Assembly: GCA_043810775.1 (NCBI GenBank)
Contig: JBDRNU010000015.1
Span: 52,555 to 116,554, forward strand
Reading direction: 5' to 3'
Source: an archaeon
Lineage (GTDB): Archaea; Nanobdellota; Nanobdellia; Pacearchaeales; GW2011-AR1
Length of the DNA: 64,000 bases
Below, in pieces: positions 20,010-58,092 of the stretch; the stretch's first letter is position 1, and every line of letters begins with the position of its first letter. A program made the translations under genes and the position numbers. The notes beneath the pieces were generated by a model that saw only the letters and a list, made by a program, of their open reading frames with translations, made no database searches and was not told the origin of the DNA.

Positions 20010-20040
20010 GGCCGGTGCAATACCATTATGCGACGCGGGC
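19948..20040 (-). tRNA. tRNA-Ser(UGA), intron-containing (class II, long variable arm)
   Basis: Manual fold gives a 7-bp acceptor stem (GCCCGCG/CGCGGGC) and a 3-bp D-stem. The anticodon stem CCGGC/GCCGG carries loop CUUGAG with anticodon UGA. A roughly 13-nt insert sits at the canonical 37/38 site (about 19992-20004). The variable arm is a hairpin (GCCC-UUU-GGGC) and the T-arm is CCAGG-UUCGAUU-CCUGG. Confidence 0.6.
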
Positions 20041-35397: not shown

Positions 35398-35455
35398 AGT
35401 TATTTAAACTATCTTTTTCTTATTTTTTTAGTAAGTAAAGCCGTAGGTATGCAGT

Positions 35456-37172: not shown

Positions 37173-37173
37173 T

Positions 37174-37746
37174 TTAAACTCCTAAAACTTTGTAAATAAA
37201 TGCATCACTTGCTCTTAATATCTCTGAGCTCGGAGCATTTATAAGTATACAATTTTCTTCCTTGCTAATCTCAATATTTTCACTGTATTTAATAATTATT
37301 ATATTATCTGTACAGTTTTTATAAGGTAAATCCTCAGTGCAATTCTCAAAAAAGCAAACATCTTGTGTTTTATCTATAAAAAATTTCATATTCTGGTATA
37401 TTTCAGATTTGGCAAGGCTATTTTCTGATGCAAAATAAAGATTTTTTCCAGTGTAGCTTTCTAATCTTACTATAGGTATAGTAATATTTTCTGTTTCTTC
37501 AGGATTATATCTTGTATAAAATTCATTGTCATTTTTAGAAAAATACCAGTAGTTATTTTCTAACCTGAGGAACTCAACCCCATTTAAAGTCAGCTTATTA
37601 TCTGTATCCTCACTATCTTCTCCAGTATTATAAAAAGCATATCCTGCAGTGCTGATTATTAAGATAATAACCATAAAAATCCCCAAAGCTATTTTCTTTA
37701 TATTATCAGACTTTGCTTTTGAGTCCTTGGTCTCTATTTTTCTCAT
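37174..37746 (-). CDS. membrane-anchored extracytoplasmic protein
   Basis: 190 aa with a single N-terminal TM helix; 2-nt spacing to the next gene. Confidence 0.45.
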   Translation of the reverse strand: MRKIETKDSKAKSDNIKKIALGIFMVIILIISTAGYAFYNTGEDSEDTDNKLTLNGVEFLRLENNYWYFSKNDNEFYTRYNPEETENITIPIVRLESYTGKNLYFASENSLAKSEIYQNMKFFIDKTQDVCFFENCTEDLPYKNCTDNIIIIKYSENIEISKEENCILINAPSSEILRASDAFIYKVLGV

Positions 37747-37840: not shown

Positions 37841-40291
37841 CTAAGCTTCTGATGTAACTAAATCTGCAGATGTTGCAGAAGTACCCTTATATTTAGTACC
37901 TTCATCAGTTGTCACGGTTTGAGTTGTAACGTACTTAGCTGCATTTTGCGTATCTGCAGCCTCAAAACCAGCAACAAGCATTGCTACCTTATCAGCGTTG
38001 TAAGGTGATGCTGCTACTTCAATAAGGAATTCACCTGAAGCTACACCAGTTTCAGTTGTCCAAGCTTCTCCACATATTGCAGATTCACTACCAAGCATTT
38101 TTGCGGCTGCTGCGTTTACACAGCTTCCACCAATAACAATCAGGTTCTTGCCTGAAACCTGGCTTACTTCACTGTCTGAGACAGTTACTGAACCAAGCTC
38201 ACTTACTGAACCGCCAGTGCTTCCACTAGTTCCTCCACTAAGTGATGCTGATGGTGATGCTAAGAAAACGTCTGCATACGATTGACTTCCAGCATAAGTT
38301 AAAGTTAACTTGTACTGGTCTCCTGATTTATCCCATTCAGCTAAGGTAGATAAATCAGATATGACATGACCCATATGATTGTCAGTGTCATCATCTTCAA
38401 ACGTATTACCTCCAGACCACTCTGCTTGCACATTGCTTACATAAACTTTGTTGTCTGTTGTGTCATCAAATGTAACATTAATAAGGTCTCCCTTAGCAAT
38501 GTTTCCATCTTTGTCCTCTTCTTGTAAGCGTAGTGTATAAGTGTTAAATCCACAAGCTGCAGTACTCAACCATGCTCCTTTGTTAGTATCACTTGTATTA
38601 ATAGCTCCATATCCACAAGAAGAATTAGCTTGTGTAAATGGTAACCAAATTACTAATCCACCTGCAGTGTAAAGTTGATGAAAGCTTCCACCTCCACCGA
38701 CAGAAACATTTACCCATTTACTGTCCCCTAATTTTTCAATAGAGTTAACAGTTAAGACAACATTTCCTACATCACAAGTGTCACTTGCAGACAAGTCTGT
38801 ACATATATTCTGACCTGTAACTTGGTCCTTAATAGTAGTCTTGTTTGCATTGTCCTTTGTGGTTACAGTTGCAGATAACAAGTGAGATTCACCCTCAGTT
38901 GTAGAGTTCCATGAAACTACAAATTGTTCGTCATTATTAGTGATATTAAATAATATAGAATTGGCACTTGAAGTAACTAATTTGTTACTTGAGTCCTTTC
39001 CTATACCTCCAAAATCACCTGTAGAGTTTGCGTAAAGCAAATCTATTGTAGCATCACCACTCTTTATTGGAGCTCTTAATTGAAGATAGTCATTTGCACC
39101 TGCTTTAATACTAACTTCTTCTGCTGCTGGAATAAAAAATTCACCCATAGTGAACTTTACTGCTTCGAAACCAGGCATTGTAAGGTCAGTATCAGCTGCA
39201 ATAAACTCTTCTTCATCTAAAGTCCAAACTATAACTATTTTGTCAATAGTTTGTGCTCCTCCACTGGTTGATCCTCTGTCTATATAAGCTGTTAAGTCTT
39301 GGATGTCATCGTCATTTAGTTCAACTTTTTGGCCGTTTTCTAATATAAGCTTTCCAGCTCCTATTGAAAACTCAACTGAACTAATACCTGTATCTTTGGC
39401 ATTATACATAATGTCTTTGATACCCACATAACTACCATCTTTTAACTTGTAAGTTCCACCTTCAGCCATAGAATTTGTGGATTCTCCATCAACACTTAAC
39501 TTGACTTCTGTTGAACTAATAAACACTATCTGGACGTCATTATAAGTTTTACTGCCAGCAGTTACACTTATTGTTTCGCCCTCTGTTAGTTGTGCTGTAT
39601 TAGCTGAGTCAAGGAAGGTCAACTTTATATTTGAGTTATTAAGTGCTGTAAGGATATAGTAACTCTTACCAAACATCTCAATATCTGTAGTTTCAAAATC
39701 ATCTAAGTGAGTTGTAGTTACAGAAGTTGTTTGTGCATTGGTAATAAAGTCAAGTGTATAGTTAAGTATGTGTCTTCCTGATGCAATCTTCATACCTACA
39801 GTTGGTGTGTCTACTTTGTAGTCATCATCTGAAAAAAAGGACAAGTTTAGGTTTAGTCCTAGTTTTATTCTTTGTGTATATTTGTAGTCTGTATTGTCAT
39901 CATTGGTATAAGTTCCATCAGCTAAAAGTACTGGTAAATGTTCGTCACTCACTGTTGTAACAAATACATCTGCTACTGAGTCTCCCATATTAAGCCTATC
40001 GCTAGATCTGTCCAATCTGATAGAATCTCCACCAGATGCAACTACTCCACTAGCTGTGCTTCCGCCTTGAGCAGTTTGTGATGCTAGATGGAACTGTAAG
40101 TTCTGACCAACATCAACTGCAGCAGAAAGATCTGTTATAGCGGCAGTGGCTCCATGGACAATAGCGACATCAGCGCCTCCTCCTGATACAAAAGGGGCAG
40201 GGTAACTTGCAGCTGCTGCAATTCCAACAGTGCTTCCAAGCATTACTACGCTCGCTACTACTGATGCGACTTTCCTGAAATTAAATTTCAT
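37841..40291 (-). CDS. S-layer-like major surface (glyco)protein
   Basis: 816 aa. Signal peptide MKFNFRKVASVVASVVMLGSTVGIAAAAS; Thr/Ser/Gly/Asn-rich with many N-x-S/T sequons. There is no C-terminal TM helix. The gene has a strong GGAGG Shine-Dalgarno, visibly higher GC than its neighbours, and a long 5' leader. Confidence 0.6.
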   Translation of the reverse strand: MKFNFRKVASVVASVVMLGSTVGIAAAASYPAPFVSGGGADVAIVHGATAAITDLSAAVDVGQNLQFHLASQTAQGGSTASGVVASGGDSIRLDRSSDRLNMGDSVADVFVTTVSDEHLPVLLADGTYTNDDNTDYKYTQRIKLGLNLNLSFFSDDDYKVDTPTVGMKIASGRHILNYTLDFITNAQTTSVTTTHLDDFETTDIEMFGKSYYILTALNNSNIKLTFLDSANTAQLTEGETISVTAGSKTYNDVQIVFISSTEVKLSVDGESTNSMAEGGTYKLKDGSYVGIKDIMYNAKDTGISSVEFSIGAGKLILENGQKVELNDDDIQDLTAYIDRGSTSGGAQTIDKIVIVWTLDEEEFIAADTDLTMPGFEAVKFTMGEFFIPAAEEVSIKAGANDYLQLRAPIKSGDATIDLLYANSTGDFGGIGKDSSNKLVTSSANSILFNITNNDEQFVVSWNSTTEGESHLLSATVTTKDNANKTTIKDQVTGQNICTDLSASDTCDVGNVVLTVNSIEKLGDSKWVNVSVGGGGSFHQLYTAGGLVIWLPFTQANSSCGYGAINTSDTNKGAWLSTAACGFNTYTLRLQEEDKDGNIAKGDLINVTFDDTTDNKVYVSNVQAEWSGGNTFEDDDTDNHMGHVISDLSTLAEWDKSGDQYKLTLTYAGSQSYADVFLASPSASLSGGTSGSTGGSVSELGSVTVSDSEVSQVSGKNLIVIGGSCVNAAAAKMLGSESAICGEAWTTETGVASGEFLIEVAASPYNADKVAMLVAGFEAADTQNAAKYVTTQTVTTDEGTKYKGTSATSADLVTSEA

Positions 40292-40679: not shown

Positions 40680-41036
40680 ATGGCAAAGAAAAGAACACGC
40701 ACTGTAAATTTATATATAACTCCTACAACTTTCTCGTCGATATTTAAGCGCATTACTGGTGAAAAGCAAGAATTTGATTTTTCTGGTATAACTGAGCTTA
40801 GACAGTGTCTTTCTAATGAAAAGGCAAAGATCTTGCACGCAATTAAAGAAAAAGAACCTGATTCAATTTACCAGTTAGCTAAGCTTCTTAATCGTGATTT
40901 CAAGTCTGTTAATAATGATGTTAAGCTTCTTAAGAATTTTGGCTTTTTAGAGTTTAAATCTGAGTTTACTGGAAAGCGCAAAAAGCTTAAACCAGAAATA
41001 GCTATTGATTCTTTAAATGTGGTTATTAACTTTTAG
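40680..41036 (+). CDS. winged-helix (ArsR/MarR-like) transcriptional regulator
   Basis: 118 aa; AKILHAIKEKEPDSIYQLAKLLNRDFKSVNNDVKLLKNFGFLEF forms an HTH plus wing. The gene is divergent from the S-layer gene and convergent with the pilin-like cluster. Confidence 0.45.
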   Translation: MAKKRTRTVNLYITPTTFSSIFKRITGEKQEFDFSGITELRQCLSNEKAKILHAIKEKEPDSIYQLAKLLNRDFKSVNNDVKLLKNFGFLEFKSEFTGKRKKLKPEIAIDSLNVVINF

Positions 41037-41580
41037 TGCATACTTGCATATCAGTAATTATATCTCCAGGTGACTTATGGATAATTCCACTAGCTCCAAG
41101 AATATTACCACTGCAGTTTCCTTGTTCAATGCTGACTAGTGGATACTCGAACTGGTCTTCTCTATAATAAATATATACTTCATAGTATTTTGTAGGTACG
41201 TCTGGCCCTATAAGCCAGGTTTCTTCTAAAATACTAGAAAACTCCTCTTCAAGCACATCGCAAGAGTCTCTATCCCCTAAACACTCTTCACCATCATAGC
41301 ATTTTTTAATAAGTTTTTCTATACTAAGATACTGGGGCTCAAACCCAACTGCGCATGCAGTAGTATACATTAAAGCAGAATCTAAGAATTTATCAATTTT
41401 TTCAGATTCACTTATTTTTACATCTTTTCTAATACTCATTCCCAAGAAAATAAGGGCAACTATACTAACTATCACTATAATTAGCACAAATCCTATCATC
41501 TCTTCTTGCGAGCGCTTGCACGAGACTAATTTATTAGATGAATAACGAGCGCAGGCGCGAGTTGAGCATTTACTTTTCAT
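41026..41580 (-). CDS. type IV pilin-like protein (class III signal peptide)
   Basis: 184 aa; CKRS|QEEMIGFVLIIVIVSIVALIF is a basic patch followed by a hydrophobic helix. Confidence 0.45.
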   Translation of the reverse strand: MKSKCSTRACARYSSNKLVSCKRSQEEMIGFVLIIVIVSIVALIFLGMSIRKDVKISESEKIDKFLDSALMYTTACAVGFEPQYLSIEKLIKKCYDGEECLGDRDSCDVLEEEFSSILEETWLIGPDVPTKYYEVYIYYREDQFEYPLVSIEQGNCSGNILGASGIIHKSPGDIITDMQVCTKS

Positions 41581-42104
41581 TGTATTTCTACCTCATACCC
41601 TACTAATATCTTACCTATATCACATTTAGTGAAAATATAGCTTTCCTGGCTTTCTCTTCTGCATAAAGCTACAAAACTTTCTACTTTTCTCTCACTTTCA
41701 ACCCTCTTATCATAAATCTTAAATAAATTACAGTTTGGGTAAGTTCCCATATCACACTCTATCTCACTAGTCTCTTGAGGGTAAACTTTTCTTATTTCAA
41801 TGCTAGATATTGAACTAGGCCAAAAACCATTATAAATAGCCCTATCTTTAAGTAGAATCATTCTATCAAAATCCAAGCAATTCACCCCACAGCTAAATTC
41901 TGGAGAATTAGCAAGCATATTTACAAGCCTAATTGCCTCATTTTGATCTAATAAGCTTGCTTTTTTATATAAGCTTGAAGTAGAGATTGTTAGATAGAAT
42001 AATCCTGCAAGTATAAAAAATAACACAATAGCCATTAGCATGAAAGCCATTTGCTGTATTTTTAATTGCGAGCGTTTTTTTACACTAAATTCCATAATAA
42101 GCAC
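41577..42104 (-). CDS. type IV pilin-like protein (class III signal peptide)
   Basis: 175 aa; KKRS|QLKIQQMAFMLMAIVLFFILAGLF. Confidence 0.45.
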   Translation of the reverse strand: MLIMEFSVKKRSQLKIQQMAFMLMAIVLFFILAGLFYLTISTSSLYKKASLLDQNEAIRLVNMLANSPEFSCGVNCLDFDRMILLKDRAIYNGFWPSSISSIEIRKVYPQETSEIECDMGTYPNCNLFKIYDKRVESERKVESFVALCRRESQESYIFTKCDIGKILVGYEVEIQ

Positions 42105-43045
42105 TCTCCAAAACCAGCTTTTTCTTCAATTTCCAGTGATTTATCATATACTCCTTGAGTTTTTAGGTCTTCTGAACTTTCAACAAGCTGGGCTTTTTGA
42201 GCTAAGACTAAAAAATCACTATATAATCCAGTATGACAATCCCTACCTTCTAAAAAATTACTTTCTTCAGCATAAAGATAAGCTAATTGTTCTGCCCTTC
42301 CCATAAGTCTCTCTACATTACACTCATATATTTCTGGGCTAGAGAAAATAGCCGCATAAAGCAGGTTTTTGTAATAATATAACTGCTCCCTATCTTTAGT
42401 TACATAACCCTCATCATAACTATCTCCTATTTTTTCTACATTAATATCACAATCTCTGCTCCTCATTCCATTCCCAAAACAAATCTTTTTACTGTCTTCT
42501 TGGCAGGTTGCATTAATCTCTACATTTCCTAGTATAATCAGATTATCCTCAATTTCATTAGAGGGATTTTTAAAGCAGTATTTATCAGAATACATCATTG
42601 TCAGTGAAGCTACTTTATATCCTGTTTCAAAAGGCATTGAAAACATATAGACTTTCTTTCCCTGAACTTCATCAGAGAAAATATATTTATTTCTTAATCT
42701 TATTTCTCCCCCAGGTTCTTGCCATTCATCTCCAACTCCGCTTTTAGTTGAGAGTGAAAATTCCTGCCAGCCAAAAGTGCCTGTTTTTTCACACTCATTA
42801 AATATTTTAGTTTCAGAATTAAAACTAATATAAGCCGTCTTTTCAGCCTCAATACTTGTTTCAAGTGGAGAGAAAATTATGCTTAGTTTTTTTGCTGTTT
42901 CTGTGTCTATTTTATACTTACTAACATGAATAAATTGAGTAGTTGTATAAATTGCAATTGCAATTATGAAAATTCCTGCCAAAATTGCAAATATAATTGA
43001 AAAACTAAATTCAAAACCTCTTTTATTAATCATTTTAAATCTCAT
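42080..43045 (-). CDS. type IV pilin-like protein (class III signal peptide)
   Basis: 321 aa; NKRG|FEFSFSIIFAILAGIFIIAIAI, a classic prepilin-like N-terminus. Confidence 0.55.
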   Translation of the reverse strand: MRFKMINKRGFEFSFSIIFAILAGIFIIAIAIYTTTQFIHVSKYKIDTETAKKLSIIFSPLETSIEAEKTAYISFNSETKIFNECEKTGTFGWQEFSLSTKSGVGDEWQEPGGEIRLRNKYIFSDEVQGKKVYMFSMPFETGYKVASLTMMYSDKYCFKNPSNEIEDNLIILGNVEINATCQEDSKKICFGNGMRSRDCDINVEKIGDSYDEGYVTKDREQLYYYKNLLYAAIFSSPEIYECNVERLMGRAEQLAYLYAEESNFLEGRDCHTGLYSDFLVLAQKAQLVESSEDLKTQGVYDKSLEIEEKAGFGECLLWNLV

Positions 43046-43137
43046 CAGATGTCAGAAACTTTATGTTTCTGATCACTCTCAAGAACTTCTGTTCTTGAAG
43101 GTTTAAAAGACAGAAAATTATCAAATTTTCCGTATTT

Positions 43138-43641
43138 TTAACAATCACTGCCTATGCAAACTAATCTTTCATAATATCCTTTTTCAATTCTAAAACTAAT
43201 TTTCGAATCAATATTTTCTATACAATATGGATTAAGCCTATTTGTAATCTTGCTTATATTTATATCAGGAATATAATAATAAGGTAAGTTGCAAGCTTGT
43301 TCAGGAGGGTATAAGTAAACACTAGCTTCATAAATATCATATCTTTTCAATTCATCAAATATATCTTTTTTATTTGTAGAGGCTTTGCTAAAATCTACAA
43401 AGCATAAATAATCTATATCTTTTGGCATATATCCTGAGAATTCCTGGCTTGAAGAAGGAGACTTCCATACAATATCTACACTATCTTTTAAGTCACCCAT
43501 ATATGAGGCAATTTGAGTGCATTTCCTTAATTCAAGAAAATGATTAATTGCAATAAATGCAATTATTACAAATAATACAATTAAGAATATGGAAAATATC
43601 ATTCCAAATGGCAGTTGCATGTCGCCTCTTTTTCCTCTCAT
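43138..43641 (-). CDS. type IV pilin-like protein (class III signal peptide)
   Basis: 167 aa; GKRG|DMQLPFGMIFSIFLIVLFVIIAFIAI. Confidence 0.45.
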   Translation of the reverse strand: MRGKRGDMQLPFGMIFSIFLIVLFVIIAFIAINHFLELRKCTQIASYMGDLKDSVDIVWKSPSSSQEFSGYMPKDIDYLCFVDFSKASTNKKDIFDELKRYDIYEASVYLYPPEQACNLPYYYIPDINISKITNRLNPYCIENIDSKISFRIEKGYYERLVCIGSDC

Positions 43642-43672
43642 TAAATAATTAAGAAATTAGGTTATTTAAAAC

Positions 43673-46600
43673 CTACTCATTATATCCTCGGGCTATGATG
43701 CTGCATTCAGAAGGATTAGGCTGTTTTCCTGAAGTATCTCTACACTTTATATAATATGAGAAATCAGTATTCCACTCTGCATAGTGTTCAGTAGTATTTG
43801 AATAAGGCATTTGTATTCCTTCATTAAAATTAAAATTACAAGTACTAGTAGAGTATGAACAATCAGAATCTTCATCAGTAATAATCTTCAAGCAGCCAGC
43901 ATTTCCGCATATTTTGCTAGGTCCTGTATCTTGGTAAACTCTGACTACTGTAGGTGCTTCTCTGTCAACCTTAACTGTAAATTCAGTATCTGCAAAATCA
44001 GTATTTCCACCTAAATCAGTGCATTTAAAATAATAATGATAGTCTCCTTCCGGCAGGTCTTGTCTCTGTTGATGAGTATAATCCCTAGTATCAAAAAACA
44101 TTATCCAGTCTTTTTCTTGTCCAGTTGTGCTATAAAAGCAAAATGCATCTCCATCACAACAGCCATTGTCAGTTACAATTTCAAGATATACAGGGAAAAT
44201 ATCAGTTCCGCCTGAAATTGTTTCATTTGGCCCGTAGCTGAGTATATCTAGTGGTTGTGTTCCTAGCAAGGTAAATTCAAAGCTTTGCCTGTTTTCATTT
44301 CTGTCACCTTCAGGCTTTCCAGGCTGGTCTTTGCATCTAAAGTAAAATTTATTTTCAACCCTGTCTTGTATTCCAGTCAGAGTAGAAGAGCACTTATACA
44401 ATAAATTAGCACCCATTTCCCAGACTCTAGTTGAGCATGCAAAGGAATTTTCCATAACATCATAATCTTTGTTTTCTCTTGACCATTTGCATTCAGATGG
44501 TTCATTTACATAAAGTTCAAAATAAACCTGGCTAGTGTTGTAAGCAACTGGCATTCCGCTAATTATGCTTGTATTATAAATTACTGGAGGAGTTAAATCT
44601 GGTCCAGCTTCTACACAGAATCTTATTGCAAATTCATCATCATTTACATTTCCATTAGCGTCTTGGCATCTTGTATATAGTGTATAAGTTCCGTCTGGTT
44701 GTATAAGTGGATTTTCAGCTCCTTCCAATACACTTGCCCCCGGCAAGCTTAATCTTTGAGTATGATTATACAAGTATAAATTAGTTTCTCCAAAATAATA
44801 AGACATACTTTCAATATCTTTAGTGTGATTATAGTCAATCTTGCACTGAGCAGGTTCATTTGTCATTAATCCAAATGTTATTGGTGTAAATGCCTTTATA
44901 CAGCCGTCTCTAGTTTCTTGGCTTGTTATTTGCATTCCAATTGAAGGTGGTCTTGTATCTACATTAGTATAGCTATGGTCTAAGCTTAGTGCATCTTCCC
45001 ATGGAGTTATTGTTGGGCTATTTACATCATGAGGATTTATCCAGACACAGGACTCATTTCCAATGCTTCCTGCATTTAACAGTTCGCAAGCCTGCCCTAA
45101 TGACTTGCATCTATATTCTGAGCAAGGTCTAAATGGGTCGCCATTGCATTCCTCGCAATTATGCCCTCCTACTGGGGCTTCCCATGTCTCGCATGTAAAT
45201 ATTACCTTCTTTTGAGTTACCTCTTCATATAAAATTATAAAGACTATTATTCCTATTGCTATTCCTGCTATTGCTCCTCCTGCGCTTAACTGCCCTATTC
45301 CTAATCCTCCTTGTGACCACCCCCCACTACCAGCTAAAGGACTTGATAAAAGCCTCGCACTAAACCCGGCTGCAAATCCAGCTGCTCCTAATGCCTTGCT
45401 CATCTCTTCACTTGCCCCCATCATACTTGCCCCCATATAAAGCAGTCCTCCAACAAACATCCCCCATCCCAATGATGCTACAAGAACTCCTCCAGCGGTC
45501 CCTGGTTGTACTAAATTACCTAGTCCTCCACCTGTATTTGCTGGTGATGTTTGAGATGCAGGACCTGGTGTTGTTGAAGGTGCTGTAGTTACACTTCCTT
45601 CTGCGATAATTTTATTTTCCCCAAATGTCACTTTATCAGCAGTAATAGCTACTCCACCCCCATCAGCCCCTTTCACACCCCCTACCCCAAACACCAACCC
45701 AACCAATCCTCCCACCCCACCGCTCAACAACCTGACAGCAGGCAGGATAAAATCAGTCTTTATCTTTGAAATTTTCAAATCATAACCCTCATCATAGCCA
45801 TCCTCTCCCAAATAATTAACCTTGCCATCGCAGTCTCCCATGCTTGCACATAATTCCTTCATCTGATTCTGCCAGCTCTCATCAAGGCACTCACAATTTT
45901 TAGTGCAGTCTTCATCACTATAAATTTTCTTTTCAAATTCAACAACACAAACAGCACTAGCTTGCGAGCAAACTCCCTGAGCATCTCCTTTAGTGCTGTA
46001 AAAATCCAATCCAGGCGAATAACTTGGAACACAGCTCATATTTTTTCCTGCAATGCTTCCTATCCACTCGCAATCTCTTTTATCAGTATTTTCACAATCA
46101 TCTTGCTCACCCTGAAATATACAATCCTGCCACCTATTAGCAACACACCCAGCTTGTGAGAACAACCCATGGTCAGTTTCAATTCCGCCCTGCCAGCAAA
46201 CTTCTTGTCTAAAATCAGCGCACGGCTCTACAATCTCTTCATTAGAAATACAAATATGTCTCCACTCTCTAGCTCCAACAGCATTAGCATCTTCATCACC
46301 TACACTAGTCGCTGTACCATCATACATGCACCATGACTCTCCGTGATTAAAATCCTGCCCATTATAAGTTTTCTCGCAATCTAAATCTCTGCAAATGCTC
46401 TCTCCATAGCTAGGTCTAGTGCTATCTTGGCTTCTGTCATAAGCTCTGCAAATACTTCCATAAAAATAATCACAATTTCCGCATCCAGCAGAATTAGCAT
46501 TCGCACTTCCAGCTCCACAGCTCTCATCCTTGCTGTAAACTTTTTTCCAGTATAAGTCATCATTTATTTTGCTAGCATCATAAATATTAGCAGGATTTCC

Positions 46601-47323
46601 GCAAGTATCAATAAAATAAACCTCATCTAATCCAGAAACACAAATAGTCTCACTTGATTTCCCGCAATTAGTAGCAAGCTCTTCAGCTGAGCAAAGCCAG
46701 TCTTTATGAAAAGTAATATTTCCAGTAACAGTTCCTTCATCAGAACCAACTAAACCTTCATCACACTGCTGTCTAGTAACAAATTTGCAGCTCCGGATAT
46801 AATCTGTTTCATATACGCAAGCTCCCTTATCCTGGCTGTGAGCCATTTCAATACAAGCATCTTCATCCTGAACATTAGTTCTAAAATTAGTATTTAATCC
46901 ATAAAATGCGCTTATTCTTTTGCATCTAGTTAAAGTTACTAAAGCCGCCTCATTAGCAAGAATACAACAACCTAATTCACACTGTGCAATATTACAATCT
47001 TTTCCTTCAGACCAGGTGCCATTTTTTTCAATGCAAACTCTTTCAGGAGTATTTTCCATGCATAGTCCTTCCTTGCCATCATAACAGCATCCCTCTCTGC
47101 AAAAAGAAGTAGCATCACAGCTTGTAGGGCTACTCCTATAATTAGAATTGCAGCTTGCACTTTCAGAATTCTGGCACCAAGCTCCATAGCTTGTTTTTTC
47201 ACAGCATACACTAGTTTCTTGAGCGCTTACAACTGCAAAACCAGAACTTAATATATAAGCAATTGCAAAAATACTAATTACTAGTAAGCAAATTTCACTA
47301 ATTGAATAAAATTTCTTCATCAT
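43673..47323 (-). CDS. giant cysteine-rich membrane-spanning surface protein (paralog A)
   Basis: 1216 aa. Layout: signal peptide, Cys-rich N-domain with CC dyads, Gly-rich multi-TM core (GGVGGLVGLVFGVGG..., AGGAIAGIAIGIIVFIIL), conserved CETWEAPVGGHNCEECNGDPFRPCSEYRCKSLGQAC module, then a beta-rich C-terminal domain. Confidence 0.7.
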   Translation of the reverse strand: MMKKFYSISEICLLVISIFAIAYILSSGFAVVSAQETSVCCEKTSYGAWCQNSESASCNSNYRSSPTSCDATSFCREGCCYDGKEGLCMENTPERVCIEKNGTWSEGKDCNIAQCELGCCILANEAALVTLTRCKRISAFYGLNTNFRTNVQDEDACIEMAHSQDKGACVYETDYIRSCKFVTRQQCDEGLVGSDEGTVTGNITFHKDWLCSAEELATNCGKSSETICVSGLDEVYFIDTCGNPANIYDASKINDDLYWKKVYSKDESCGAGSANANSAGCGNCDYFYGSICRAYDRSQDSTRPSYGESICRDLDCEKTYNGQDFNHGESWCMYDGTATSVGDEDANAVGAREWRHICISNEEIVEPCADFRQEVCWQGGIETDHGLFSQAGCVANRWQDCIFQGEQDDCENTDKRDCEWIGSIAGKNMSCVPSYSPGLDFYSTKGDAQGVCSQASAVCVVEFEKKIYSDEDCTKNCECLDESWQNQMKELCASMGDCDGKVNYLGEDGYDEGYDLKISKIKTDFILPAVRLLSGGVGGLVGLVFGVGGVKGADGGGVAITADKVTFGENKIIAEGSVTTAPSTTPGPASQTSPANTGGGLGNLVQPGTAGGVLVASLGWGMFVGGLLYMGASMMGASEEMSKALGAAGFAAGFSARLLSSPLAGSGGWSQGGLGIGQLSAGGAIAGIAIGIIVFIILYEEVTQKKVIFTCETWEAPVGGHNCEECNGDPFRPCSEYRCKSLGQACELLNAGSIGNESCVWINPHDVNSPTITPWEDALSLDHSYTNVDTRPPSIGMQITSQETRDGCIKAFTPITFGLMTNEPAQCKIDYNHTKDIESMSYYFGETNLYLYNHTQRLSLPGASVLEGAENPLIQPDGTYTLYTRCQDANGNVNDDEFAIRFCVEAGPDLTPPVIYNTSIISGMPVAYNTSQVYFELYVNEPSECKWSRENKDYDVMENSFACSTRVWEMGANLLYKCSSTLTGIQDRVENKFYFRCKDQPGKPEGDRNENRQSFEFTLLGTQPLDILSYGPNETISGGTDIFPVYLEIVTDNGCCDGDAFCFYSTTGQEKDWIMFFDTRDYTHQQRQDLPEGDYHYYFKCTDLGGNTDFADTEFTVKVDREAPTVVRVYQDTGPSKICGNAGCLKIITDEDSDCSYSTSTCNFNFNEGIQMPYSNTTEHYAEWNTDFSYYIKCRDTSGKQPNPSECSIIARGYNE

Positions 47324-47324
47324 C

Positions 47325-48101
47325 TTATTTTATTGTACCAGTGCTATATCCTGGAGGCCAGCTCAAGCTTCTAGTGGCAAATATAAATTTTTCTTCTGTA
47401 ATTCTGTCAGTTAAAACATAAATCTTGCTTCCATCAGACTGCTTGTATTTTTCAACTTTCAAGTCAGGATAATATAACATATAAGTAAGAGGGTCAGAAT
47501 CTCCTAATCTAGCTTCATAGTTTAGTATTGATGTAGAAATCATAACTAAATCATATAATCCAGAGTCTAATGAAAATTTAATAGTTTCATAAGTATCACT
47601 TACACCCTCTCTTTTGTTTAGCACCATATTCATGTTAATATCAAATATAATCCTATCAGGAATAAATTCAACATTTAATTCATTATTTCCTAAAGCAACA
47701 ATATACCCCTGCTTCTCCATTTGCTTTTTCAAGCTTAAAGCACACTCTCTAGTTACTTGCTGAAGTTCAGCTTCCAGCTCCTCTTCAATATGCTGTTTAA
47801 GAAGTGGTTGCTGCATTGTGCAAGTATCATAATACTCATTAGTATAGCATAAATAATCAACATCATAACCCTCATACCAGATGCTATTTTCCGGAGAAAA
47901 ACTCCCACCTTTTTTAGTTAAAATATCTAGTTTATCTTCGGCAATATCTTCTACACAACCCTTCATATAAGCATTAGGTTCAGTTGGCCCAAATACTACT
48001 GATTCAATCCTAGGCCAGAATAAAACTATTAATACAGAAACTATAAGTATAGCTATAATTACAAATATGGTAATTTGCGCCCTCTTTTTTAAACTATGCA
48101 T
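47325..48101 (-). CDS. type IV pilin-like protein (class III signal peptide), partner of giant A
   Basis: 258 aa; MHSLKKRA|QITIFVIIAILIVSVLIVLF. Its stop lies 1 nt from the start of giant A. Paralog of 52524..53294. Confidence 0.55.
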   Translation of the reverse strand: MHSLKKRAQITIFVIIAILIVSVLIVLFWPRIESVVFGPTEPNAYMKGCVEDIAEDKLDILTKKGGSFSPENSIWYEGYDVDYLCYTNEYYDTCTMQQPLLKQHIEEELEAELQQVTRECALSLKKQMEKQGYIVALGNNELNVEFIPDRIIFDINMNMVLNKREGVSDTYETIKFSLDSGLYDLVMISTSILNYEARLGDSDPLTYMLYYPDLKVEKYKQSDGSKIYVLTDRITEEKFIFATRSLSWPPGYSTGTIK

Positions 48102-48190
48102 GTTTTTTCAACGCGAGCTATATTTATAAAGTTTATTAAAGCAAATAACTCAAGAATAAATTTAAATACTTCAGTTCAAAGTTCCTATTA

Positions 48191-48769
48191 ATGGATCAAT
48201 CAACAGAAACTGAAGTCAGAAATTTTGAACTATATAGTGCTCTTCAGGCAAGTCCTCACTCTAATCAAGGTCAGATTGATAGGGCATATAAAAGGCAAAT
48301 TGAATTTCTTCAAGCTAAGCTGGAAAATTATGAAATAACAAAGGTTAATTTAATTGCAAGAGCTGATAAAAGAGACCCAATTGACAGAGTTGAATTAATA
48401 GCTGAACTTGCACAAGCTCGTCTTGAAATTCAAAATTTTCATACAGCAGTTGAACAGGCTAATCATACTTTATCTAATCCTGTAAGGCGTGCAATATATG
48501 ATTGTACTGGAGAATATGATAAAATTTTTCCACATGAATGCAAACATAGAATATTTCAACCCCAAGAACAGCATGATATCCCTAACTTAAGAGAAATTCA
48601 GGAGCAAATTATGGCAGGAAAAATTAGACATGTTTTTTATTCAGGTCCAGAAGGAACTAGCATGGGTTTTGAAAGTTTTTTGAGTCAATCTCCTTTTTTA
48701 GATTTATCTTTTATGGAAAAAATATTATCTGAAAGAATGAAAAGAGGATTTAAAGATTTTTTTAATTAA
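48191..48769 (+). CDS. J-domain-like protein lacking HPD
   Basis: 192 aa; QIDRAYKRQIEFLQAKL and ANHTLSNPVRRAIYD resemble J-domain helices II and IV. No His-Pro-Asp motif is present. Confidence 0.35.
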   Translation: MDQSTETEVRNFELYSALQASPHSNQGQIDRAYKRQIEFLQAKLENYEITKVNLIARADKRDPIDRVELIAELAQARLEIQNFHTAVEQANHTLSNPVRRAIYDCTGEYDKIFPHECKHRIFQPQEQHDIPNLREIQEQIMAGKIRHVFYSGPEGTSMGFESFLSQSPFLDLSFMEKILSERMKRGFKDFFN

Positions 48770-51700
48770 TATCAACTGCCCTTGTTTTAATGCTGCATCC
48801 CCCAGGCTCATTATTGAAAATATCTCTGCACTTAATGTGGTAAGTATAATCTATCTGCCATCCAGTAGTATGGAACCTGTCACTTCCACTCATCCTCTCA
48901 CCTTCATTAAAATCAAAATAGCAAGTATCAGTTGAATAAGCACAAGTAGATGGCTCTTCAGTTTCTACTACTAAACTTCCACCATCATGATAAACTCTGG
49001 TAATTACAGGATATCTGTTATCTACACTAATCTTAAAATCAGTTGAATAATTTGCTTCATTTTCAGCTACATCCTTGCAATTTATTTTGTAATTATAACT
49101 TCCTGCATACATTGTAGTCAGCGTTGAGCTATGATAATTGTCAAAAGTTTCCCTAAACCTGTCATTCCATCCATATGGTCCAAGTTTCCATCTGCATTCA
49201 GATTTTCCATCTTCAGCTCCTCCACTAGTATAAGTTTCTAGCTTAATGCTAACTGGTTCAAATCCAAAAATAGCCTCTCCACTTGGATAAGCTCCTTCTA
49301 CTTTTAATGGAGATAAGCTTGGATACAGCGAATAAGGATAAGCTTGGGTGTTTGCGTTTCTTTTGCTTTCATTTTCTCCAGCATACCAAGGCTGGTCTTT
49401 GCATTTGAAATAAAATTCATTTTCTTCAAGAGTAGTATTCAGCTTTAAAGCAGTGTCGCAATTAAATCCCCATACAGTTGGTGTTTCAAATACATCAGCT
49501 GAAGGGCAAGTAAATTCTCCTTCCATTAGCTCATAATCTATGAATTCTTTAGTGCTCCATCTGCAAGTCACTGGCTCATTTACATAAATTGTAATATTTT
49601 TTTCACTGGAATTATATTTAGTGTAGGCATAATCTTCTGGAATTGTTTTTTGAATTCTGGGAGCAGTTAAATCAGGCCCTGGCTTTACACAGAAATTAAT
49701 AACATAGTCAGCTGGAGTCCAGGCTCCCCAGTCATCCTGACATTTTACATAGAGGTTATAGTCTGCAACTCTGTTAGGGTCAAATCCATGAGCTCCTAAT
49801 GCATCAGGGCTTGGCAGATTAATGCTCGTTGAGTGATTTCTCAAGTATAAATTTCTATTGTTGAAAAATTGAGGCATATTTTCATAAGGCATTATTCCTG
49901 GTTCTAGTGAATACTTGCACTGTCCTAGCTCATCTAATGAAATTCCAAATTGCACATTAGTCCATGCTTGTATGCATCTTCCGTCTTGTTGCCTTACTTT
50001 ATAGCCATTGTTGGAAACTTCTGTATAAGTATAATTTTCAGTTACAATATTATACCAGGGTGAAATTTGTGGAGGAATTGCATCTTGCTTGCTTGCCTCA
50101 CATATTTCAGCTTCACTTCCCTCATTAAAAAAGTGGCAGGCAGCTCCCAAGCTTGAGCATCTGTATTTTGAGCATGGATGCATAGGATTATCGTCGCAAT
50201 TTCCGCAATCAGAGCCGCCAACAGGCGGCTGCCATGGCATGCAGTTAAATGATACTGTATGCTCTTTTGTATCTCCTATTCCGAGAAGTTTTGTAACTAT
50301 TGCTACTATAATTATAAATAATATTGCTAATGGGCAAAGAATACCAGTAGAGCACAATGTCATAATTCCTACTTGCATATATGCAGCAACAGCTCCAACC
50401 ACTAATCCTGCAACAGCTCCTGCAATAGTGACAATTAATAATCCCTCTCCCTCCAATCCAAACATTTTTCCAATCATCATTCCTATCATTGCACCAACTG
50501 CAACTCCTATAGCTATATTTGCAAATCCTGCAAAAAACCCAAATGATTGCGAACCTGATATAACTCCTGACGCCGTTTCAGTAATTACTATTCCTTTAGT
50601 AAGTGAATATGAAACCACTAAACCATCAGTAAGCGCTGCTGTTGTTATCATTCCAACAGCCCCCACACCATAAGCCCCTGTTGTTCCCAGCATAAATTTA
50701 TACATTGCATCAGAATAATCAGCTTCTTCATATTCATCTAACTCCCCAATTCCCAAGAAACCATAAAAACTGCTGATATCTCTTGCATCAGCAAACTGCC
50801 CTTCAATTGGTTCAGCATATTTCTCAAATTTTTCCAAATCAGATTTTTCTAATCTAGGAGCTCCAGTTACAGAATATCCTCCATCTGTAACTTCTCCCTC
50901 AATATTAACATAAGCTCCGCAATCTCCAAGCGAAACACAATAATTATTCATTTTTTCTGCAAATTCCTTGCTTTGGCAATCACAATTAAACTCGCACTCC
51001 CATCCATCAACATGCTTTACCTCAACCCAAGTGCAATCAAGGCTTGCTCTTCCACATATAGTTGAAGCAACATCATATCCTTTTTCACTCTGAAAATCAA
51101 AACCAGGAGAATACTTTGGAACACATAAATCAAAGCTATAATCAGAGTCAATGTCAATTTTCTGCACTCTGCACACAAAATTCTTTTCGCACTTGTCAGT
51201 TTCAACTTCCTTATTATAACTTAGGCATTCTTGCCATGGATTTATCATGCAAGAAGCTGTAGAAAATTTTTCTCCACTAGAGTCATCAACTATAATATCA
51301 CTCTGAACACATATTTCAGTTCTATAATCCCCGCAAGGGTCAATCTTAACCTCCCCATTCTGGCAATAGTGCTTCCAGTGTCTCGAGCCTACTACATCAG
51401 TTGAAAATAAATTATCCTCTCCATCTATTATTTGAACAGCAGCTACATTAGGAATATCTTCTGATTTTGATTCACTTTCTCCAATACTTCCATCATACAC
51501 ACACCACGACTCTCCATTTCTTCTTGCATTTCCTTTTTCATCAATACAATCCATATCTCTACAAATATACTCTCCTTCTGCAGGTGTAACTCCAGAACCC
51601 TCAGCCCCCCCACATATACTTCCTAACATATAAAAACAGTTTCCACAGCTAAGTGAATTCGCATTGCCATTAGCATTAGTAGGATTACAACTTTCATTTT

Positions 51701-52520
51701 TTTCTAACACCCACCCATTATTCCAGCTTGCATCTCTATCAGAATCATAAATATTTTCCATATTTCCACAAGAATCAAACCAATAAACCTCATTATACTT
51801 ATTTTTATTATCAGCACATCCAGTGCTTGCCTGTCTTGTGCAGTTTGTTTCTAATTCAGAATTTGAACATAATACATCTTCATGAAACTCTCCACCACTA
51901 CTCTGGCACTCTTGCTGAGAAATAAATTCGCAATTATTTTCATCTTCACCATAATAAACACAAGCTCCAGTTGAAGTAGTTGAAGCAAGAGCAATACACT
52001 CTATCTCATAAATAACATCTGGTCTGAAGTCAAAATCAAAACCATAATAATCAGCAAGATAATTACATCTATCTCTAGTAACAAACTGAGTCTCATCTCC
52101 TAAAACACAGCAAGCCTTCTGGCATTCTGCAATATTGCAAGCAGGTTCATCAAACCATTGTCCTCCATCTTGTTCGCATTTAGCTTTTGGCGAGTTGCTT
52201 GCACAAGTTCCTTGATAGCTATCAAAGCAGCATCCATAATCACAGTTAGTAGTATCTTCACAAAATCCAGGGAAACACCCACTAAATCCTCCCTGGCACT
52301 GCCCTCCACACTGCTCCCAGACCATTTCCTGGCATATGCTATTATTATTAGTAACTTCACAGCATTGTGGAGTTAATGGTTGTGCTTCAACCACTTTAAT
52401 TTCATCTGTGATAATTCCAACTAAATAGCAAAATGCAAAAATAGCAATTACTAAGTTTAGTATCTGAAAATAGCTAATTCTAGCTTTTCTGCCCAAAACC
52501 TCTTTTTTATTTATTTTCAT
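48762..52520 (-). CDS. giant cysteine-rich membrane-spanning surface protein (paralog B)
   Basis: 1252 aa; same architecture as paralog A. The conserved module is CMPWQPPVGGSDCGNCDDNPMHPCSKYRCSSLGAAC, with a Gly-rich TM core and a conserved C-terminal domain. Confidence 0.7.
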   Translation of the reverse strand: MKINKKEVLGRKARISYFQILNLVIAIFAFCYLVGIITDEIKVVEAQPLTPQCCEVTNNNSICQEMVWEQCGGQCQGGFSGCFPGFCEDTTNCDYGCCFDSYQGTCASNSPKAKCEQDGGQWFDEPACNIAECQKACCVLGDETQFVTRDRCNYLADYYGFDFDFRPDVIYEIECIALASTTSTGACVYYGEDENNCEFISQQECQSSGGEFHEDVLCSNSELETNCTRQASTGCADNKNKYNEVYWFDSCGNMENIYDSDRDASWNNGWVLEKNESCNPTNANGNANSLSCGNCFYMLGSICGGAEGSGVTPAEGEYICRDMDCIDEKGNARRNGESWCVYDGSIGESESKSEDIPNVAAVQIIDGEDNLFSTDVVGSRHWKHYCQNGEVKIDPCGDYRTEICVQSDIIVDDSSGEKFSTASCMINPWQECLSYNKEVETDKCEKNFVCRVQKIDIDSDYSFDLCVPKYSPGFDFQSEKGYDVASTICGRASLDCTWVEVKHVDGWECEFNCDCQSKEFAEKMNNYCVSLGDCGAYVNIEGEVTDGGYSVTGAPRLEKSDLEKFEKYAEPIEGQFADARDISSFYGFLGIGELDEYEEADYSDAMYKFMLGTTGAYGVGAVGMITTAALTDGLVVSYSLTKGIVITETASGVISGSQSFGFFAGFANIAIGVAVGAMIGMMIGKMFGLEGEGLLIVTIAGAVAGLVVGAVAAYMQVGIMTLCSTGILCPLAILFIIIVAIVTKLLGIGDTKEHTVSFNCMPWQPPVGGSDCGNCDDNPMHPCSKYRCSSLGAACHFFNEGSEAEICEASKQDAIPPQISPWYNIVTENYTYTEVSNNGYKVRQQDGRCIQAWTNVQFGISLDELGQCKYSLEPGIMPYENMPQFFNNRNLYLRNHSTSINLPSPDALGAHGFDPNRVADYNLYVKCQDDWGAWTPADYVINFCVKPGPDLTAPRIQKTIPEDYAYTKYNSSEKNITIYVNEPVTCRWSTKEFIDYELMEGEFTCPSADVFETPTVWGFNCDTALKLNTTLEENEFYFKCKDQPWYAGENESKRNANTQAYPYSLYPSLSPLKVEGAYPSGEAIFGFEPVSIKLETYTSGGAEDGKSECRWKLGPYGWNDRFRETFDNYHSSTLTTMYAGSYNYKINCKDVAENEANYSTDFKISVDNRYPVITRVYHDGGSLVVETEEPSTCAYSTDTCYFDFNEGERMSGSDRFHTTGWQIDYTYHIKCRDIFNNEPGGCSIKTRAVDIN

Positions 52521-52523
52521 TGT

Positions 52524-53294
52524 TTAAAATCCTGCTGGAATTATGCATCCTCTTACAGCAAATTTCAGTCTATCTTTAGTATATTTATCTTCAACTACAT
52601 AAATTTTTGCAGCATTTTCATTTCCACCATGAGTATATCTTTCAACATAAACTTCAGGATATAGCAAGCTGTATCCAATATACTCAAAATGGCAGTACTT
52701 CGCTTCCTGGTCAACAATTTCTACAGCTATACTAGCCAAATCATAAAGCGGAGTAGCTATTACTAGCTTAAATTCATCATATTTTTTTTCTTCACCCTTT
52801 CCAGAAATTTCAATAGTTCTGTCAATATCAACTTCTAATTTCCTTGAAGACAGTTCACAATTTACTTGCATAGCACCCCTGTCTTCTAGCACAATATCAA
52901 AACCCTTTTTTTCATACTCTTCTTTAAAAGCTTCAAAACAAGAATTAATTTTATCTTCTGAATTATCAGTAATTTCATTTTCAAGATGCTTGAAATACAT
53001 TGGCTCCTGGTTTACACAAGGATAATAATAATTCATATTATAGCACAAATAAGCAATTTTATTTCCTTCAAATAGCTTATAATTTTCAGGCTCTAAATAT
53101 CCTCCTTGAGCAAGCATCTTTTGAATTACACTTTCTTCAAAACACTCAGTCAAATAAGCTTGAGGCTCAGGAAGCTTAGCTGGTCTAAAATTAATAATAG
53201 TATCTCCTCTTAAAATCATATAAAAAACAATTGAAACTAGTATAATAATTCCTATAATTACAAATATAGTGATTTGCGCCCTCTTTTTTAACAT
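52524..53294 (-). CDS. type IV pilin-like protein (class III signal peptide), partner of giant B
   Basis: 256 aa; MLKKRA|QITIFVIIGIIILVSIVFYMIL. Lies 3 nt upstream of giant B. Confidence 0.55.
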   Translation of the reverse strand: MLKKRAQITIFVIIGIIILVSIVFYMILRGDTIINFRPAKLPEPQAYLTECFEESVIQKMLAQGGYLEPENYKLFEGNKIAYLCYNMNYYYPCVNQEPMYFKHLENEITDNSEDKINSCFEAFKEEYEKKGFDIVLEDRGAMQVNCELSSRKLEVDIDRTIEISGKGEEKKYDEFKLVIATPLYDLASIAVEIVDQEAKYCHFEYIGYSLLYPEVYVERYTHGGNENAAKIYVVEDKYTKDRLKFAVRGCIIPAGF

Positions 53295-56253: not shown

Positions 56254-58092
56254 ATGAAAAAAGTAGGTGTATTAATAGTATTATTTATCTTAATTTTATC
56301 TATAGTAGTTGTCCTAGCTCAAGATAATACGACTGCTAATGATGACTCAAATGATGATACATTTGCAACTGCAGGTGATGAGTTAGATTTAGCTTATTCT
56401 TGTCTTAAAAATGAAGTTAAAGATAAATGCTCATCTCTAAGTGTAGAAGAGCAAGTTTTTTCTTTGCTAGCTTTATCATATGACTCTGGCATACAAAAAG
56501 AGTGCAAAGATGACTTAAGAGATAATGAAGATGCAAATCACTGCTGGCCTAAAGGAAGCTGTAGATTAAGAGACACTTCACTTGCAATTCTAGCTCTTGA
56601 TAATATAAACTCAGATATAGAAGAATCAAAAGAATGGTTGCTTGACCATAAAAAAGTCGCAGATGATTTAACCTGGTTTTTAGAAATTGATACAGGAGAA
56701 GAGTCTACCTGTAAAATAAGTTATACTGGTCGTGATTATACTCTAACCATTAAATCTGACAAAAAAATCAGTTCAAGTGCAGGAGACTGTTTAGCCCTTT
56801 CAATGAATAGTTACTGGCTGAAAATAGATTCTGACTGCATAGAAACAAATTTTACAATATCTTGTAACAAAGACTTTATCTCAACACTTCTTTATAAAAA
56901 ATCAATTTCAGATACTTATTATGTCTCAAGCCAGACAGAGACAGCAACAGCTGAAGGAGAAACTGAGCATAGAGTAGAGTCTTACTGTTTTGAGCAGTCT
57001 GGAGATTGTAACTATGAAGGTAGTTTATGGGCCACTTTTGCTCTATCAAAAACAGGTGAAGATATTTCAGGACTTCTCCCATATCTTATCTCCTTTGCAG
57101 AAGGCAATGGAAAATATAATCCTCATGCATTCCTATATATCTTAACTGGATACAATGAATATATGACTTCACTAGGTGGGCTTCAAAATAGTGAAGGGTT
57201 CTGGAATCTAGATTCACCATATGGGAAGTTTTATGATACATCACTCTCTGTTTTATCTATCCCAAATTCAGTTTATTCTACTACTGCAAAGACTTCTCTT
57301 CTTGATACACAAGGTACAGATGGCTGCTGGCAAAATTCAGTTAGAGATACAGCTTTTATATTATATGCTGGCTGGGGAAAAGAACCAGTTGTTGTAACAG
57401 GGGTAGATATAGACTACTGCACTGATTTCGATTATTACTGTATAACTGAAGGGGAGTGTACAGATGTAGAAGGAAACAAGTTATCTAATTATTATTGTTC
57501 TGGAGTTAGTAAGATTTGTTGTGATGAGCCTGCAAGCGAAGAATCCTGTTCAGAACAATCTGGAGAAGTATGTACTTCAGATGAGGAATGTAAAGGCTCA
57601 TATGTCACCTCACTTGATACTTCTTATTGTTGCTTAGCTGGTTGTCAGGCAAAGCAAGAAAATGCATGTGAAGATGCAGGTAATAATTGTAGAGTGTCTT
57701 GTCAGGACAATGAAGATGTTTTAAGTTATACTTGTGAAGACGCAAATGATTTTTGTTGCGGCTTAAAATCTAGCCCAGAACCAAGTTACTGGTGGATTTG
57801 GTTATTAGTAATACTAATTATATTAGTTATAATTGCAATTATTTTTAGAGATAAATTTAAAATATTCTTATATAGTCTAAAGACTAAGTTCAAAAAAGGA
57901 GGAGGAAAAGGCTCAGAGCAAAGACGTCCTCCATTCCCACCAGGCCCAAGGCCAATGGGAGGGCCTTTTCAAAGGCCCATGCCTCCTAGAAAAATGCCTT
58001 TAAGAGCCCCTATGCAAAGGCCAGTTTCAAAGAAAATTGAAGACAAAGAACTTGATGAAACTTTAAAGAAACTAAAAGAAATTAGTAAGTAA
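56254..58092 (+). CDS. secreted Cys-rich protein with prenyltransferase/terpene-cyclase-like repeats, C-terminal TM and Pro-rich cytoplasmic tail
   Basis: 612 aa. Signal peptide; repeats of the form [DE]G.W...DT[SA].[AS][IL]L[AS] (DGCWQ...RDTAFILYAGW; EGFW...DTSLSVLSI). The C-terminus has a CC-dyad Cys-rich region, SYWWIWLLVILIILVIIAIIF, and a PPFPPGPRPMGGPF tail. Confidence 0.55.
   Translation: MKKVGVLIVLFILILSIVVVLAQDNTTANDDSNDDTFATAGDELDLAYSCLKNEVKDKCSSLSVEEQVFSLLALSYDSGIQKECKDDLRDNEDANHCWPKGSCRLRDTSLAILALDNINSDIEESKEWLLDHKKVADDLTWFLEIDTGEESTCKISYTGRDYTLTIKSDKKISSSAGDCLALSMNSYWLKIDSDCIETNFTISCNKDFISTLLYKKSISDTYYVSSQTETATAEGETEHRVESYCFEQSGDCNYEGSLWATFALSKTGEDISGLLPYLISFAEGNGKYNPHAFLYILTGYNEYMTSLGGLQNSEGFWNLDSPYGKFYDTSLSVLSIPNSVYSTTAKTSLLDTQGTDGCWQNSVRDTAFILYAGWGKEPVVVTGVDIDYCTDFDYYCITEGECTDVEGNKLSNYYCSGVSKICCDEPASEESCSEQSGEVCTSDEECKGSYVTSLDTSYCCLAGCQAKQENACEDAGNNCRVSCQDNEDVLSYTCEDANDFCCGLKSSPEPSYWWIWLLVILIILVIIAIIFRDKFKIFLYSLKTKFKKGGGKGSEQRRPPFPPGPRPMGGPFQRPMPPRKMPLRAPMQRPVSKKIEDKELDETLKKLKEISK

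Follow-up and report, generated by a model that had tools for sequence, protein, structure and literature searches.

Which surface structure could six small pilin-like proteins and two giant cysteine-rich proteins form, when they are encoded side by side in an archaeon of the Pacearchaeales? Their genes lie in a stretch of 64,000 nucleotides (the window; positions 52,555 to 116,554 of contig JBDRNU010000015.1, assembly GCA_043810775.1), where two pairs of a pilin-like and a giant gene (A1-G1 and A2-G2) are followed by four more pilin-like genes (P3 to P6). Pacearchaeota and Woesearchaeota rank with the most abundant of the uncultivated archaea, and their cells are assumed to be host-attached. 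An initial annotation, made from the sequence alone, had proposed a surface or adhesion apparatus; we confirm the genes that it described and support its interpretation in part. We found that these genes form a lineage-wide cell-envelope gene cluster of Pacearchaeota and Woesearchaeota, two groups of the DPANN archaea (Diapherotrites, Parvarchaeota, Aenigmarchaeota as well as Nanoarchaeota and Nanohaloarchaeota), and that the system is real, widespread and uncharacterised. With moderate confidence, we read it as a pilin-derived surface complex that would project G1 and G2 outwards for contact with a cell or a surface.

As a basis for all eight gene coordinates (Table 1), we used the list of open reading frames (ORFs) of the window and their translations, which agrees with the layout of the initial annotation: eight minus-strand genes, with two A-G pairs whose members are 1-3 nt apart and four genes after them. 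The gap is 3 nt between A1 and G1 and 1 nt between A2 and G2, P4 overlaps P5 by 25 nt and P5 overlaps P6 by 4 nt; judging from their 1-nt gap, A2 and G2 are translationally coupled. As had been claimed, the members of the two pairs are paralogous, with 32% identity between A1 and A2 (E 8e-43) and 35% between G1 and G2 over the N-terminal 550 aa (E 6e-85), and G1 and G2 each contain 71 Cys (5.7-5.8%).

Homologues of these proteins are numerous. We found 304 for G2, all named 'hypothetical' and originating from metagenome-assembled genomes (MAGs) of Pacearchaeota, Woesearchaeota and Nanoarchaeota, and 296 for A2. With a profile of the G family, 6913 clusters (50% identity) were matched, and for 2437 of these the E-value was 1e-30 or lower. 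A scan of one genome per species gave at least 600 stretches, with 591 confirmed relatives among the matches listed; all the organism-labelled records among 76 listed loci belong to Pacearchaeota, Woesearchaeota or Nanoarchaeota. For the synteny map, the window proteins were placed on 78 related loci. The order PCNA-A1-G1-A2-G2-P3-P4-P5-P6-HTH-S-layer, where HTH is a helix-turn-helix regulator and S-layer an S-layer-like protein, is repeated in dozens of MAGs, so that the module is indeed kept in related DPANN genomes. The complete fixed order starts with x427, x612, (Cas4) and primase, continues with PCNA, A1, G1, A2 and G2, then P3, P4, P5, P6, the HTH regulator and the S-layer-like protein, and ends with x190, x231, an archaeosortase-like protein and a CARDB protein. 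The cluster was found in most of the related Pacearchaeota/Woesearchaeota loci retrieved, with a variation in the number of G copies, some genomes having one A-G pair and some three G genes. With homologues by the hundred for each gene, and a gene order that is found again in dozens of genomes, chance is excluded. The two A-G pairs are distinct orthologous groups conserved in fixed order across the lineage; they are therefore ancient paralogues arising from an ancient duplication, and the tandem duplication seen in the initial annotation was rejected as a recent event. A viral or mobile origin was rejected as well, with 0 PHROG matches and a cluster that is syntenic among core genes.

The relationship of the six small proteins to pilins was sought in their N-termini, which read as the initial annotation had quoted them. 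In A1, A2 and P3-P6, a short basic leader of 6-12 residues ends with K-[KR]-[GAS] and is followed by Gln (Phe in one family) and a hydrophobic helix of about 20 residues. According to alignments and position counts, this class-III-like design is kept in 29-50 orthologues per family. In the A-family alignment, Q9, T11, F13 and I15 are near-invariant right after K-[KR]-[GAS], and four Cys are invariant. Gln was present at +1 in 45/48 A, 33/34 P5, 28/28 P6 and 13/32 P3 orthologues; the P3 consensus is K[GA]Q...SFGMIFSI, the P4 family carries [FIL]-E-x-S-F in place of Gln +1, and Gln+1, Glu+3, Gly+6 and Phe+7 were observed in all 28 P6 sequences. The archaeal prepilin peptidase EppA requires Gln at this position (PMC4390842). 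When 1.6 Mb of related DNA was searched for the motif [KR][KR][GAS]Q plus a hydrophobic stretch, 130 of the 137 occurrences were in A/P3-P6, and five of the other seven were divergent P6 orthologues. The neighbouring signal-anchored proteins x190 and x231 do not have this motif. Comparison of the N-terminal profiles with hhalign gave mutual probabilities of 81-88% for A, P3, P5 and P6 (85% for A vs P3) and 96% for P3-P4, against 12% or less for the small proteins vs x190/x231. Beyond the N-terminus, the A2 model weakly resembles GspI/XcpV/TTHA1218, a weak similarity to the pilin fold. Overall, we regard the six small proteins as probably pilin-derived.

Several results weigh against a pilin-derived complex. 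The strict FlaFind-type pattern, [KRDE][GA][ALIFQMVED][ILMVTAS]x3, was found in 33/50 A and 5/37 P3 sequences and in 0 of the P4, P5 and P6 sequences, the misses being due to polar residues at +2 to +5. The pilin, archaellin, N_methyl and Class_IIIsignal models of Pfam and NCBIfam were not matched by the window proteins at E up to 1, so that the comparison of the six proteins with curated families called for at the outset gave 0 matches, and 86 P3-P6 orthologues were likewise without a match to curated pilin or class III models. What stands of the class III signal of the initial annotation is thus a conserved, family-specific motif; as a family, only A follows the strict pattern, and no curated pilin hidden Markov model (HMM) recognises any of the proteins. 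No obvious major pilin was seen in the cluster, nor a candidate in any of the 78 loci, and within 10 kb of the cluster the same loci have neither a T2SSE-type ATPase motif nor a GxGD polytopic peptidase. According to a preprint, DPANN genomes lack components of type IV pili (10.1101/2020.05.14.094862). The giants show good conservation, with 35-50% identity between distant members and many invariant non-Cys residues, which sets them apart from fast-evolving host-recognition adhesins. Finally, unrelated housekeeping genes are also conserved in their order in these genomes.

Much of this evidence would fit another explanation, in which the N-termini are uncleaved Sec signal anchors and the cluster is a housekeeping envelope scaffold and not a set of type IV pili, with the G proteins as pillars that would hold or space the S-layer and the small proteins as accessory membrane subunits. 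In nearly every locus, the cluster adjoins the S-layer-like gene, whose product has a signal peptide and no C-terminal transmembrane (TM) segment. In most of the retrieved loci, the cluster also lies among core genes such as PCNA and primase, as expected from housekeeping genes; the rest of the window consists of housekeeping and envelope genes (among them ribosomal proteins, FtsZ, SepF, PCNA, primase, a Cas4-like nuclease and the S-layer-like protein). The good conservation of the giants, the absence of pilin HMM matches and of machinery nearby, and the statement of the preprint on DPANN genomes agree with such a scaffold. However, it leaves unexplained the near-invariant small residue-Gln before the helix in five unrelated globular families, as well as the lack of the motif in the true signal anchors x190/x231. 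Moreover, synteny is weak evidence here: because unrelated housekeeping genes are likewise syntenic, the adjacency to the S-layer gene proves little. We consider the S-layer scaffold, the main rival reading, somewhat unlikely.

The initial annotation had remarked that the window encodes no pilus assembly machinery. In agreement with this, Pfam scans of about 50 ORFs of the window detected neither an ATPase of the T2SSE type nor a T2SSF platform protein nor a peptidase of the A24 family, and the Walker A motif GxxGxGK[ST] had 0 occurrences in its six reading frames. Orphan secretion ATPases have been described in nanoarchaea by Makarova et al. A machinery encoded elsewhere would be needed for a true type IV pilus minor-pilin operon, in which A and P3-P6 would prime a filament made of a major pilin and G1/G2 would act as PilY1-like tip adhesins. 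The layout does resemble bacterial FimU-PilVWXY1 operons and the four minor pseudopilins of type II secretion systems (T2SS): as in FimU-PilVWX with PilY1 or in GspH-I-J-K, four to six pilin-like genes accompany a large non-pilin surface protein. By contrast, the giants have neither the PilY1/PilC beta-propeller nor a vWA domain (Pfam, NCBIfam; the fold searches gave immunoglobulin (Ig)-like matches only), and they differ from PilY1-type sets in being membrane-anchored, in belonging to an archaeon and in the absence of machinery genes from the locus. The membrane anchor of G is hard to square with a position at a filament tip, and major-pilin and machinery candidates were found in 0/78 loci. 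Taken together, these results make a minor-pilin operon quite unlikely.

The giants themselves were analyzed from hydropathy and from an AlphaFold2 model of G2 (predicted local distance difference test, pLDDT, 79.5). These point to a Sec signal peptide and a beta-rich N-module, then a Gly-rich disordered stretch with three helices after it, and last a C-module; the Cys of G2 are confined to the outer modules (45 in the N-module, 25 in the C-module), with 0 in the membrane region. The membrane-proximal part of the G2 C-module is Cys-rich and has the conserved motif PW.AP.GG.DCE.C...CSEYRC.SLG, and its distal part is modelled as 4-5 tandem Ig/FN3-like beta-sandwiches. A fold search with the G C-module returned tandem Ig/FN3/cadherin ectodomains and the bacterial adhesins GhpA and SiiE, both G2 match lists being filled with Ig-like matches. 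Thus, G has the tandem beta-sandwich domains in an extracellular protein that define an Ig-like adhesin, and the predicted Ig-like C-terminal rods fit a surface or adhesion role. The likeness to Big-domain adhesins (SiiE, the GhpA grappling hook) and to metazoan cell adhesion molecules is at the level of the fold only (8-13% identity), and the N-module and central hairpin anchor of G have no counterpart in Ig/FN3/cadherin-like adhesins. The G2 N-module had 0 sequence matches in Pfam or the PDB, and PDB sequence searches with the A, G and G N-module profiles likewise gave 0 matches. Weak matches to CoV_NSP4_N in 8/31 N-modules were judged compositional and set aside. An assignment to a known family was attempted for all eight proteins and rejected, with nothing above threshold in Pfam, NCBIfam or PHROGs; the giants fall into no known family according to the library scans and, as the initial annotation had it, have a membrane anchor of their own according to hydropathy and the model.

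The picture of the giant protein as a single unit had to be revised. In 35-39/76 loci, G2 is split into two ORFs: an N-half of about 500-600 aa with a signal peptide and no anchor, and a C-half of about 700-800 aa with its own signal peptide followed by membrane helices. Because each half has its own signal peptide, both modules are probably outside the cell, and the split genes in relatives show G to be a fused pair of extracellular modules, often encoded by two genes. No split G1 was seen in related loci. The two G2 halves are adjacent in some loci and separated by 1.8-6.5 kb of unrelated genes in others (examples of split G2: L036 6091-11815, L067 1493-11737, L013 9881-13819). Among the genes in between are a Glycos_transf_4 membrane protein, lipoprotein-like ORFs and toxin-antitoxin-like genes.

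The central helices raise a further alternative, namely that G would oligomerise by its Gly-rich helices into a membrane pore or conduit for exchange with the host, the outer modules docking on the host envelope. Small-xxx-small motifs are conserved in each of the three predicted G2 helices, and G1 has a run G-x3-G-x3-G-x3-G-x3-G as well as a weak match to a Gly-zipper family of Pfam; in addition, the molecular identity of DPANN-host bridges is not known (PMC11420986; PMC11329633). However, the Gly-zipper match reaches 13 bits for a cut-off of 28.9 bits, GxxxG is a generic helix-packing motif, and in no other part of G are conservation and model confidence as low as in the membrane region. The oligomerisation is putative, and we regard a pore as highly improbable.

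Table 1. Features of the surface-protein cluster and its context, in positions of the window.
Feature	Position (nt)	Strand	Description	Basis
A1	52524-53294	-	256 aa pilin-like; leader MLKKRA then QITIFVII...	ORF list, A2 paralogue
A1 fold plan			globular alpha/beta domain with conserved Cys after N-terminal helix	
G1	48762-52520	-	1252-aa giant surface protein	ORF list, G2 paralogue, hydropathy, family alignment
G1 Sec signal peptide	aa 1-46	-		hydropathy
G1 Cys-rich N-module	about 50841-52382	-		Cys counts, hydropathy
G1 Gly-rich helical membrane region	about 50256-50840	-		hydropathy
G1 Ig-like C-module	about 48765-50255	-		
A2	47325-48101	-	258 aa pilin-like; leader MHSLKKRA then QITIFVII...	
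G2	43673-47323	-	1216-aa giant surface protein	ORF list, homologues, AlphaFold2 model
G2 N-module	45764-47218	-	aa 36-520; 45 Cys, beta-rich	
G2 Gly-rich linker and membrane region	45212-45763	-	aa 521-704; 23% Gly, 0 Cys, three predicted helices	
G2 C-module	43676-45211	-	aa 705-1216; 25 Cys	
P3	43138-43641	-	167 aa pilin-like; KRG then DMQLPFGMIFSI	
P4	42080-43045	-	321 aa pilin-like; NK[KR][GA] then FEFSFAWLFAI	
P5	41577-42104	-	175 aa pilin-like, GTG start; KK[GAS] then QLKIQQMAF	
P6	41026-41580	-	184 aa pilin-like; KK[GAS] then QEEIVGF	
HVO_A0114-type HTH regulator	40680-41036	+	context only	Pfam (E 3e-18), synteny
S-layer-like protein	37841-40291	-	context only	Pfam, synteny in most loci

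Each A gene of the window precedes a giant, and the initial annotation had taken the two as one module. We counted as coupled any same-strand ORF of at least 300 aa lying -80 to +150 nt from the end of an A gene. Such an ORF follows 80/104 A-family genes, with a median spacing of -4 nt; 74 of the 80 partners are of the G type and six are other proteins. The coupling of A to giants is thus real, and the A cassette is not specific to them. The non-G partners that were checked have signal-peptide-like N-termini, some with trypsin-like or thioredoxin domains, and comprise a 623 aa thioredoxin-domain protein, a 633-640-aa family without a Pfam domain and a 720-aa trypsin-like family. Extra A genes overlapping the starts of their partners were observed at L005 15975-21219, L035 14463-17107, L072 3650-6548, L064 13818-16722 and L004 7954-10531. 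Since A genes are also coupled to secreted proteins other than G, an A gene with a large secreted partner makes up a general two-gene cassette, and, to judge from its sequence context, the A family appears to serve large extracellular partners in general as an adaptor or anchor. An extension of this idea would be a pilin-derived display system that does without the classical type IV pilus motor, in which A adaptors would capture co-translated G, protease or thioredoxin cargo and, together with P3-P6, constitute the host-contact apparatus; we hold this version to be unlikely.

We propose the following mechanism for the pilin-derived surface complex. Sec would insert the six small proteins, a prepilin peptidase encoded at another locus would trim them, and their N-terminal helices would then pack them into a short pseudopilus-like or membrane-embedded base. 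Each A would be made together with a large Sec-secreted partner and serve as its adaptor or anchor. Here the partners would be G1 and G2, each held in the membrane by a Gly-rich helical hairpin, from which the Ig-domain rod and the 45-Cys head would project outwards, probably to or beyond the S-layer. Such an assembly may be a stable surface structure, locked by disulfides, with which the cell would contact another cell or a surface.

Among known systems, the Epd pilins of Methanococcus maripaludis (EppA-processed, DUF361-type) have the same basic leader, small residue at -1, Gln at +1 and helix of about 20 residues, and genes of archaeal class III pilins are likewise clustered. Unlike Epd-type pilins, the cluster proteins match no curated model and have globular domains unrelated by sequence; their processing is putative, the cluster lacks an evident major pilin, and neither an ATPase nor a platform protein or peptidase adjoins it. 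Pilin-type N-termini are also found on surface or envelope-anchoring subunits that do not form long filaments, in the Sulfolobus bindosome and in FlaF/FlaG, systems that rely on a dedicated ATPase and platform protein (BasEF, FlaIJ). The cluster is not known to be related to either of them in sequence. Compared with SlaB-like S-layer anchors, which have a coiled-coil stalk and a single C-terminal TM segment, G is built differently, with an anchor of several helices at its centre and outer modules that are all-beta.

Some additional features were observed within and around the cluster. The interval between G1 and A2 measures 660 nt in the window vs about 35 nt in related loci, and holds a 192-aa ORF (48191-48769, +) that overlaps the G1 stop by 8 nt. 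This ORF has a weak DnaJ-like match (E 5e-4, below cut-off) and a homologue in 0/78 related loci; it may have been inserted in this lineage or be spurious. PCNA and A1 are 46 nt apart in the window, and a 60-74-aa ORF overlapping the A1 start in other loci (L001 3884-4108, L002 4681-4872, L080 3996-4187, L082 5271-5453) is absent from it. The HTH regulator is convergent with P6, with an 11-nt overlap at the P6 3' end, and separates P6 from the S-layer-like gene in nearly every locus; it is a candidate regulator of envelope genes.

Further away, x612 and x427 (56254-58092 and 58167-59450, both +) are syntenic type I membrane proteins (612 and 427 aa) that combine a signal peptide with a C-terminal TM segment and Cys-rich stalks; they have 0 Pfam matches, and orthologues beside primase are found in many loci. 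The x190 and x231 proteins (36477-37746, -) are paralogous (hhalign probability 99%), contain conserved Cys and always come after the S-layer-like gene. At 33769-36025, a small polytopic protein with a weak exosortase/archaeosortase match (E 2.4e-4, below cut-off) adjoins a CARDB/Ig-like protein of 542 aa that has a TM segment at its C-terminus; the two keep their synteny with the cluster in many loci and may be a sorting enzyme and its substrate. Finally, a 93-nt tRNA at 19948-20040 (-) was detected by Rfam (48 bits) and missed by ARAGORN, and its length suggests an intron-containing archaeal tRNA.

In the literature and the family libraries searched, we found no description of these protein families. 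In the cryo-electron tomography (cryo-ET) and comparative-genomics papers examined, no molecular component is named for the attachment structures of DPANN archaea, and Pacearchaeota and Woesearchaeota are not the subject of any of them. Castelle et al. described lineage-specific modules of undescribed function, membrane-bound or extracellular, in Pacearchaeota. In this context, the cluster is a concrete candidate for the envelope or contact machinery of Pacearchaeota and Woesearchaeota cells, and proteomics, cleavage assays, multimer modelling and cryo-ET have specific targets in its proteins. It also brings a pilin-type signature into archaea in which type IV pili are lacking, according to a preprint (10.1101/2020.05.14.094862). 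If pilin-like N-termini do work here without the usual motor, this would extend the known roles of pilin-type proteins.

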